From: Octopus vulgaris
Lineage: Eukaryota
Direction: 5' to 3'
Assembly (NCBI GenBank): GCA_951406725.2
Contig: OX597823.1
Span: 17,732,001-17,796,000 of the forward strand
DNA length: 64,000 nucleotides
The notes under the pieces are model-generated. The model was not told the origin of the DNA. It saw only the letters and a list, made by a program, of their open reading frames with translations, and ran no database searches. The translations under genes and the position numbers were made by a program. This document shows, in pieces, positions 1,243 to 63,343 of this stretch. Within the stretch, counting starts at the first letter, position 1; every line of letters starts with the position of its first letter.

Positions 1243-43485
<42,243 letters not shown>

Positions 43486-43687
43486 CTAGTAGGAACAAAG
43501 AAAGAAGAAAATGAAAGTTTGTTGTGGTAAATATATATATATATAATAATAAATATTAGGGAATAAATCCAAACTTACAGGGAAAAATCAGATTTAGGAT
43601 TGAATCCAATTTTATAGTAAAATATTATATTATATTAAATTAGAGATAAAACCATTGATTAAACCTCGCCAAGTTAAATATTTAAAC

Positions 43688-43751
43688 CACCTGATGAATG
43701 ACTGTAACTCGAAAATTTAAAGAAATTAACAGCCATGAAACGATCGTAGTG
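43688..43751 (+). ncRNA. Minimal type-I hammerhead ribozyme motif (intact core)
   Basis: CAC-CTGATGA-[ATGACTGT..ACAGCCAT]-GAAAC-GATC-GTA-GTG. Confidence 0.75.
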
Positions 43752-44115
43752 CTATATTAATTATATTTTTTTAATAATTTTGTTATATATTTAAATAATA
43801 TAAATTAAATAATCTTATGTATTGGCTTAAGCTTTTCATTGTATGATTTGCCTAATAGTGGTTTTATCTCTAATTTAATATAATATATATATATATATAT
43901 TATATATACATATAAAGATTGATAAAATTTGGTTTACGATAAAAATTTCAGATATTTGTCTTAAACATTCAGACAAGCAAATTCATAATTCAGATGTATG
44001 ACATGAGATATTATTCCATTCAAATAACCACATATTTATATTAAGACATAGACGATAAAACTATAGAAATATAAGAGTATAAACATAAAAAATATAAGGA
44101 GTAACATGAAAGTAG

Positions 44116-62143: not shown

Positions 62144-63343
62144 ATGCATAAGTGTGCGTGTGCGTGTGTGTGTTCAAAAACTAGCCATGTGGCTTTTCAT
62201 GCTCCAATTTGAAAAGATGTTACTGGCCACTGGCCATTAGGGTCTGATGAAACATGTGTAAAGCACTTTAGGGATGTGAAACCCTGAGTAACCCTATGAA
62301 CCAGACTACTGCTCTATAACTTCAAATGTGCTTCTCTTTCAGATTTATGATTTACTGACAACACACACACACACATATATAGTGGAGGCGCAATGGCCTA
62401 GTGGTTAGGGCTGCAGACTCACGGCTGCAGGATCACAGTTTCAATTCCCAGACCGGGTGTTGTGAGTGTTTATTGAACGAAAACACCTAAAAGCTCCATG
62501 AGGCTCTGGCAGGATGGAAGTGGGGGGTGATACCTGCTGTACTCTTTCACCAAAACTTTCTCTCACTCTTTCTTCTGTTGGCCTGCTCGCTTAGCCAGCG
62601 GGGTGGTGGCATTCAAAGGCTAAAACAATAAAACAATGCAAATGCATTGTGACCAGCGATGTGTAGCAACATCTGATGGTCTGATCGGTCATGTGATATA
62701 TATATATATATATAGTATAATTCAGGTAAAAATGTGATTTGTTATTAAAACCTGGGATCTTCCAACCTAATGTTATATTTTTCTTATATATAATGTATAT
62801 ATACATATCAAAAGAGAATATTGGTAAAACGTTTTTGAATCTCCTGTTTCAATGTGTAATTACTGAACAAAAATATTTTCCAGAATTTTCAACACTTATG
62901 CATTCTTCACACAAATATGACATCTATGTACAACTTTGGAATACTGGAATAAGTGGATATGTGCTTCAACAGGACACACTTTGGATGTTAATCCTATCAC
63001 CATAACATGTGTGTGTTGTTATACTGTACAAGTGTCTTCTAATACAGCTTTATTCTGAGGCTATATCAGAAGACATTTGTCTAAGGTGCCAGGCAACAGA
63101 AGCAAGCCCCAAAACCCATGGTTGTGAAATAAGCTTCTTAACTCCACAACCATGCCTGTGCAGTATATTTTAATCTGTATTTATGAACTTATGGGGATTA
63201 GCTAATTAACCTATGTTGGCACAGGTCACCATTAGTTTCCTAAGACCTCAGATTTTACAGTATACCAGTAAACTAAAAGAAGTTTGTGTCAACATCAGTT
63301 GTCAAGCGATGGAGGAGGGGACAAACACACACAGAAATAACAA

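Follow-up and report, generated by a model that had tools for sequence, protein, structure and literature searches.

Metazoan Penelope-like elements (PLEs) carry minimal hammerhead ribozymes, whose cleavage is weak and confined to dimers (Cervera and De la Pena 2014, PMC4209133); dimer cleavage was described by Lunse et al. 2017, as cited in PMC6765202. Among the C-terminal EN+ PLEs, a Hydra clade that includes Hydra-1_Obim has been delineated (Craig et al. 2021, PMC8557442). In the case of Poseidon PAc of Anolis, RT was shown in vitro to start at two internal sites, and both strands to be nicked (Frangieh et al. 2024, PMC11167929), and in the case of the Penelope families of Adineta vaga, an antisense self-priming template was favoured as the explanation of intron retention (Arkhipova et al. 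2013, PMC3846280). The family described here touches on two questions raised by these elements, namely cutting by weak hammerheads in vivo and the reason why introns are kept (PMC4209133, PMC11167929, PMC3846280).

The locus lies in a 64,000-nt stretch of the Octopus vulgaris genome (contig OX597823.1, positions 17,732,001 to 17,796,000), referred to below as the window. We consider it very probable that the hammerhead found there belongs to the pLTR of a PLE family, likely of the Hydra type, and that the copy of about 340 bp around it represents two head-to-head, spliced pieces of the 5' end of a parent element. Reverse transcription from two start sites likely placed them in the cut ends of a (TA)n run, and the copy is likely inert. 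Both the motif and the layout are already known for PLEs, and the window copy itself is ordinary transposon debris; the interest lies in the footprints left at the level of the family. The features of the window are as follows (L131 is a long copy of the parent):

43287..43487, minus strand: host exon, the N-terminal laminin-G-like part of a collagen gene, which we take to be a TSPN domain, outside the element; covered exactly by a contig of sequencing run X2 that continues into 38571-38590
43531..43545, no strand: left (TA)n target remnant; TA runs also flank the family copies
43545..43654, minus strand: inverted 5'-truncated second arm, composed of 29 nt of the pLTR end and a tail of ~75-80 nt (site 2); 97% to L131
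43653..43887, plus strand: sense arm, a spliced pLTR that begins close to the inferred transcription start and ends at 3' end site 1, with no tail; 89% to L131 by blastn
43653..43677, plus strand: pLTR exon 1 remnant, with the splice junction at 43677/43678, where long copies hold an 851-nt GT..AG intron
43688..43751, plus strand: minimal type-I hammerhead of the pLTR, with the predicted cut between 43748 and 43749
43688-90, plus strand: stem I 5' strand CAC, read from the sequence
43691-97, plus strand: core CTGATGA, read from the sequence
between the cores, plus strand: stem II ATGACTGT/ACAGCCAT, 7/8 pairs with an A.C mismatch at pair 4
43737-40, plus strand: GAAA, read from the sequence
after GAAA, plus strand: stem III palindrome ACGATCGT, read from the sequence
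ending at 43748, plus strand: cleavage triplet GTA, followed by the stem I 3' strand GTG at 43749-51
43883..43900, no strand: right (TA)n target remnant; a target-site duplication is unreadable inside the TA runs
30691..30781, minus strand: older stub of the same PLE family (80%) that consists of the tail only and is flanked by (AAT)n and (TA)n

The two arms are joined via a 2-nt overlap at 43653-43654. The first-pass annotation, made from the sequence alone, had described an element with TA runs at its two ends and an inverted repeat around the motif. Both are present, and the repeat is perfect over 29 nt (43626-43654 / 43859-43887), but it does not bound an element: it is the overlap of two head-to-head arms, whose length differs between copies. 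The same annotation saw the 5' part of the element recurring at ~30720-30785. This match is real (30691-30781, 80%), but what recurs, 43545-43625, is a 3' tail on the minus strand.

All parts of the hammerhead that had been claimed for 43688-43751 on the plus strand were found at their positions; the CUGANGA and GAAA cores, an NUH triplet and strand ends in stem I define it as a type-I minimal hammerhead. Its 3' half had 1823 exact matches genome-wide against 0 for the reversed control, so the motif is not due to chance, and the pattern core-N10-40-GAAAC matched twice in the window against 0.28 expected. A real hammerhead motif of Penelope-like origin was confirmed at 43688-43751, with its cleavage predicted from sequence. 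The Rfam model search that had been proposed for it returned no hammerhead match. Our own descriptor demanded four contiguous stem II pairs and so missed the motif; the chance rate obtained with it, 0.06 per 64 kb, is therefore a rough guide only. The motif had no stable monomer fold (z +0.56; hammerhead conformation at -0.1 kcal/mol). In contrast, a dimer paired through the palindrome ACGAUCGU reached -15.0 kcal/mol, compared with -0.2 kcal/mol for two monomers, in agreement with the earlier proposal that the palindromic stem III is suited to dimers. The intermolecular stem III helix comprises 8 bp (-10 kcal/mol) and ends 1-2 nt from the predicted cut. For cutting, such a hammerhead would need to be dimeric or to have the help of a protein.

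As in the minimal hammerheads of PMC4209133, the octopus motif is of type I, with a helix II of 7-8 bp, a short helix I and a small palindromic helix III, and its genomic copies are mostly single or form opposite-strand pairs 100-700 bp apart. Contrary to those hammerheads, it shows neither the G10.1-C11.1 pair, stem II closing with A-U or U.U, nor a helix I of 4-5 bp, stem I being 3 bp long. We compared 114 copies, a set chosen for an intact core and therefore uninformative about core conservation. The closing pair of stem II was A-U in 74, U.U in 39 and C.U in 1 of them, and the outer pair of stem I was broken or wobble in 32/114 (2 bp in 31/114). Since helix I of Drosophila virilis Penelope is 2 bp long (PMC4209133), the short stem I marks a variant. 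The two also resemble each other in an intron that ends just before helix I, in the octopus family 10 nt before stem I. Position N7 was T in 61 and A in 53 copies, and loop II varied from 20 to 53 nt. Covariation of the stem among genomic copies, one of the checks that had been suggested, was observed at pair 8 of stem II, which shifts between U-A, U.G and C-G (91, 4 and 14 of 114 copies) and makes one compensatory pair. The core, however, did not stand out above its flanks. The deviation per site in 29 young copies was 0.020 in the core, 0.016 in the tail, 0.028 in the 3' flank and 0.083 in loop II. Conservation of the core thus does not exceed that of the tail or the 3' flank, and dead copies alone show no special constraint.

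The genome search that had been suggested for copy number, run with a 341-bp query, gave 1234 candidates, confirming that the copy number is high; the 40 scored were full-length, 86-97% identical and located on many contigs of the 2.8-Gb genome. The arms near the 3' end had 6437 exact matches genome-wide and 0 in the reversed control, and about two thousand copies of the hammerhead motif were left by the Penelope-type element. When 30 copies were aligned, their outer ends were constant and lay in (TA)n runs, while the inverted part met the hammerhead at a variable junction, with ~27 different arm junctions as read by eye. The real unit, revealed by other loci, is about 317 nt long. Starting from ..TTCATTG, it runs across the hammerhead and ends at site 1 (position ~243) or, where the optional tail is present, at site 2 (~317). 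The 3' ends of copies fall at these two fixed sites. In loci taken in genome order, 16/18 head-to-head pairs combined site 1 with site 2, 2 had an odd end, and 0 used the same site twice. Single arms (n = 27) ended at site 1 in 16 cases, at site 2 in 9 and elsewhere in 2.

The first-pass annotation had interpreted the 340-bp unit as a non-autonomous element, which would make it a unit moving by itself, similar to a MITE or a retrozyme, and the copies are indeed numerous, highly identical, in many cases alike in length, and bounded by an inverted repeat. However, the junction and the length of the inverted arm differ per copy, the two fixed sites account for the 3' ends, and the sequence of the unit is the pLTR of an RT-encoding element, an autonomous parent that is present in the genome. 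Moreover, head-to-tail arrays of monomers, which characterize non-LTR retrozymes, are absent from the loci mapped, and direct repeats occur in them only as 2-kb or 5-kb partial tandems. This interpretation is thus largely refuted, and we regard it as very unlikely. A MITE was rejected because the arms are variable, with no fixed terminal inverted repeats, and because the precise loss of an intron shows an RNA step. A non-LTR retrozyme was rejected because head-to-tail tandem hammerhead units are absent among the mapped loci: retrozymes of this kind, as described in bioRxiv 10.64898/2026.07.22.740005, share with the octopus copies the type-I hammerhead, the relation to PLEs and a short unit with no protein, but they form head-to-tail tandem arrays, whereas the octopus copies derive from a coding parent and are scattered as stubs, either single or head-to-head. 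The PLE origin proposed earlier was upheld. The same pLTR flanks an ORF with RT and GIY-YIG elsewhere in the genome. In view of this, together with the varying junctions and the two fixed 3' ends, the most fitting interpretation is that an autonomous family gave rise to each of the short copies separately, as a dead product.

The parent was reached by stepwise DNA walking upstream from the pLTR, and eight long copies were fetched. L131 has the layout pLTR, ORF, 1.3-kb 3' UTR, exon 1, 851-nt intron, hammerhead exon and tail, with a period of about 4.97 kb, and its main features are:

3191-3899 of L131: pLTR
ATG about 3929 to 6358 of L131: ORF, frameshifted, about 2.4 kb
to 8834 of L131: hammerhead exon with tail

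The ORF is composed of a TERT-like RT, an N-rich insert and, at its C-terminus, a GIY-YIG. None of the eight long copies fetched held a complete intact ORF: the open frame of L128 is truncated at its 5' end and spans 745 codons, and L131 is frameshifted. Twelve homologs were found at E 1e-10 or better, and the RT motifs were invariant across 11 homologs. The predicted structure of the ORF product had a mean pLDDT of 73, and a fold search with this model placed TERT structures at ranks 1-5 (3du5, E 2e-9). Its Atlas neighbours scored 0.95-0.98 and included HTH_animal/GIY-YIG clusters; GIY-YIG is present in 26-38% of the members of the Atlas clusters. Pfam and PDB-sequence searches returned no match for the ORF and were equally blank for two homologs, and so the GIY-YIG call comes from the endonuclease motifs VVYK..YIGST..R..H..E..N, read in the ORF and the alignment, and from the homologs and the Atlas. 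Residues 407-498 of the L128 ORF form an asparagine-rich, unfolded insert between the thumb and the endonuclease linker, which is missing from most homologs. As judged by eye, the L131 tail at 3836-3846 (CCTGTAAGTTT) could pair with the first ORF codons at 3931-3941 (GAATTTACAGG); this putative hairpin would cover the start codon, with 3' end site 2 inside it. The parent 3' UTR (L083, L090, about 1150-1500) holds a (TG/TA)-rich microsatellite block of its own, and so some microsatellite DNA in the genome was spread by the element.

Several properties of the parent are those of EN+ PLEs: a telomerase-like RT, a C-terminal GIY-YIG, a pLTR intron retained in some copies, pLTR-ORF-pLTR partial tandems with the hammerhead in the pLTR (L131 and L132), and an inverted 5'-truncated copy with a tail at one end (16/18 pairs). 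The alignment with the homologs revealed the DKT motif, the CxCx5C linker and the CxxC..E..N..CxH arrangement in which CxxC and CxH flank E/N, with no CCHH, as in the Hydra clade of PMC8557442. Other features shared with that clade as described there are the RT with C-terminal GIY-YIG, the preference for (TA)n targets, the hammerhead near the 3' end and the inverted 5'-truncated copy with the tail at one end. The Neptune clade was rejected: its CX2-5CxxC linker and CCHH were not found, and the motifs fit Hydra instead. Judged by its motifs, the parent family likely belongs to the Hydra clade. Its N-terminal RWK site reads RIKWKA (KWK) in L131, and RWK/RWR in close homologs. The family departs from the Hydra section of PMC8557442, as its unit of about 5 kb exceeds the <3 kb given there, worded as 'generally short', and contains the 1.3-kb 3' UTR and the N-rich insert; its tail measures ~75-80 nt compared with the published 30-40 nt, and that section mentions no pLTR intron comparable to the one of 851 nt. 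In addition, the N-terminus, RT4 and the hammerhead differ by eye from those of Hydra-1_Obim, and neither 'PMGAP' nor the hammerhead 15-mer occurs in the PMC8557442 supplement. No description of this octopus PLE family was found in that supplement or in the literature covered, a search that excluded Repbase, Dfam and subscription papers. With the A. vaga Penelope families (PMC3846280), it shares the head-to-head inverted pLTR, the tail, an Inr-like start, an N-rich ORF insert and a long spacer before the 3' pLTR. As a young, high-copy family of the Hydra type with a near-complete ORF, it would be usable for in vitro work.

Long copies carry extra sequence exactly between the bases that correspond to 43677 and 43678, which starts with GTATGT or GTATTT and ends with TTTTAG. 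This intron is 851 nt long in L131, where read alignment gave the same GT..AG joint (7695>8547). As the sense arm of the window copy lacks precisely this GT-AG intron, it was copied from spliced RNA. Genome-wide, there were 669 matches to the spliced junction, a count that includes a few donor mutants (L085, L096), versus 149 to the unspliced donor. The intron was kept in 24/25 copies extending at least 480 nt upstream, and short copies were mostly spliced. All 37 spliced arms sampled (from 90 loci, 30 of them picked for likeness to the window copy) had their start no more than 31 nt from the donor, at AGTTCATT or within it; AGTTCATT begins 29 nt before the splice donor. Beyond this sample, a few spliced copies reach further upstream (L037, L104). 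Contigs of sequencing runs guessed to be RNA contained both spliced and unspliced pieces, but both forms also exist as DNA, so these pieces carry no information on transcription. The uniform start of the spliced arms near the donor, with the intron kept in long copies, argues that most short stubs derive from a sense RNA that was spliced and whose start lies in the pLTR. Unlike in the proposal made for A. vaga (PMC3846280), precisely spliced short copies require a sense, spliced template.

On the model of PAc (Frangieh 2024), transcription would start at AGTTCATT in the pLTR, and the intron in the 5' UTR would be spliced out. The RT/EN protein would then nick both strands of a TA run, cDNA synthesis would begin inside the RNA at site 1 at one end and at site 2 at the other, and each cDNA would run toward the 5' end of the RNA until the two were joined through microhomology. 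The pairs of site 1 with site 2 fit the two RT start sites and the two-strand nicking of PAc, with which the octopus family also shares the AT-rich target, the two internal starts bounding the tail, the nicking and extension of both strands, and mostly uncut templates (PMC11167929). In contrast to the octopus family, PAc belongs to another clade and its ORF starts in stem II; the octopus ATG likely follows the tail by about 55 nt. When spliced mRNA is primed in its first pLTR, only stubs of at most 320 nt would result, and ORF-bearing copies would originate from the downstream, mostly unspliced pLTR of a read-through RNA. Most templates would be uncut (the window copy spans the predicted site), and arms that stop at the site would reflect either RNA already cut or an RT stalled at the dimer helix.

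We looked for arms whose 5' ends fall at the predicted cut with patterns of unequal length, which required foreign sequence upstream and covered one subfamily and three control windows. In the 3-nt window at the cut, 45 matches started and 738 arms ran through. The control windows gave 13 starts at -6..-4 (3 nt), 9 at +2/+3 (2 nt) and 7 in the 3 nt that border stem II on its 3' edge, so that the cut shows a 4.1-fold excess per nt (p 2e-9). Two pairs among the matches look duplicated (L246/247, L256/257). Inspection of all 74 loci left 41 true truncations at the cut, and 12, 8 and 6 in the controls. The 41 junctions at the cut comprised 18 blunt at +1, 4 with A before it and 19 with TA before it, which could start at -2. 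The inverted partner passed the cut in only 6/31 cases, and in 17 it stopped 6-27 nt short. In contrast, it passed in 13/15 for the two upstream controls (Fisher p 2e-5 versus the cut site) and in 4/6 for the downstream control. The partner arms rarely pass the cut; the two cDNAs from one event thus have this boundary in common.

That 5' ends are in excess at the predicted cut suggests RNA cleavage in vivo. About 4-5% of the arms that reach the site stop there, and we hold cut RNA to be the likely cause, with chances somewhat better than even. Still, RT could have stalled where the palindromic stem III of paired template RNAs ends on its 3' side, or microhomology could have produced the same ends with no cleavage, and we give this explanation a real but clearly less than even chance. 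The intermolecular helix described above ends so close to the cut that it would block both cDNAs alike, and TA precedes the site in 19/41 junctions. Additionally, as reported by Frangieh et al. (PMC11167929), no RNA-seq reads were found to start at the cut for PAc in Anolis; the octopus excess is found in genomic copies. On the other hand, the 3' edge of stem II gave no peak (7 matches, none blunt), and 18 junctions were blunt exactly at +1 compared with 3 blunt starts at -4. Cleavage of the RNA, in turn, makes an exact prediction, namely RNA ends with 5'-OH at the equivalent of window position 43749. No published genomic analysis of cut sites was found in a literature search that excluded subscription papers.

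On a broader reading, which we judge to stand at about even chances, the dead stubs, numbering in the thousands, would be a fossil record of the PLE reaction in vivo. Their cDNAs would have been primed at different sites of a sense RNA and would share a stop at the scissile bond, owing to germ-line cutting of a shared template or of a co-cleaved dimer, and intron splicing would sort the RNA into mRNA, which gives rise to stubs only, and unspliced read-through RNA, which gives rise to full copies. If true, this would explain the 'intron retention' of PLEs without an antisense template.

The position of the element antisense to a collagen gene, as first annotated, was borne out: the hammerhead is on the plus strand, and exon 43287-43487 and the 16 Gly-X-Y stretches (1.2-30.4 kb of the window) are all on the minus strand. 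The annotated distance of 200 bp from the collagen exon holds for the motif (200 nt), but the edge of the element is about 58 nt away. In the host gene, a Collagen match was obtained (E 1.4e-4), together with a weak Laminin_G_2 match of a downstream exon (E 0.0096); Pfam and PDB scans of the 66-aa neighbouring exon gave no match, and the upstream exon is outside the window. The contig of run X2, which is guessed to be RNA, joins 43287-43487 to 38571-38590, placing the element in an intron. Contigs break at the TA runs, so an empty-site allele is invisible in them. We regard it as extremely unlikely that the window copy was co-opted to regulate the collagen gene. It does lie 58 nt from the exon acceptor, and its tail is in the sense of the gene and holds a GTAAGT word. 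However, the hammerhead, being antisense, cannot cut the collagen pre-mRNA, and the exon is joined normally in the X2 contig. Moreover, with >6000 arms in 2.8 Gb, insertions in long introns are expected, and the window holds two. A host role for the window copy is not indicated.

A high-copy repeat lies just downstream of the element, at window 43922-44107, where contig depth was raised in three runs. Other common repeats occur at 62383-62700, 32460-32760 and 33920-34220, and a different repeat at 42300-42600; those at 62.4, 32.5 and 34 kb are presumably tRNA-SINE-like. A second type-I hammerhead, with stem I GGGT/ACCC and a GUA triplet, was observed on the plus strand at window 62241-62293. 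It belongs to an unrelated, older repeat family, of which 40 were scored out of 402 candidates (about 68-87%); several of these copies are arranged head-to-head, and stem II covaries by eye.
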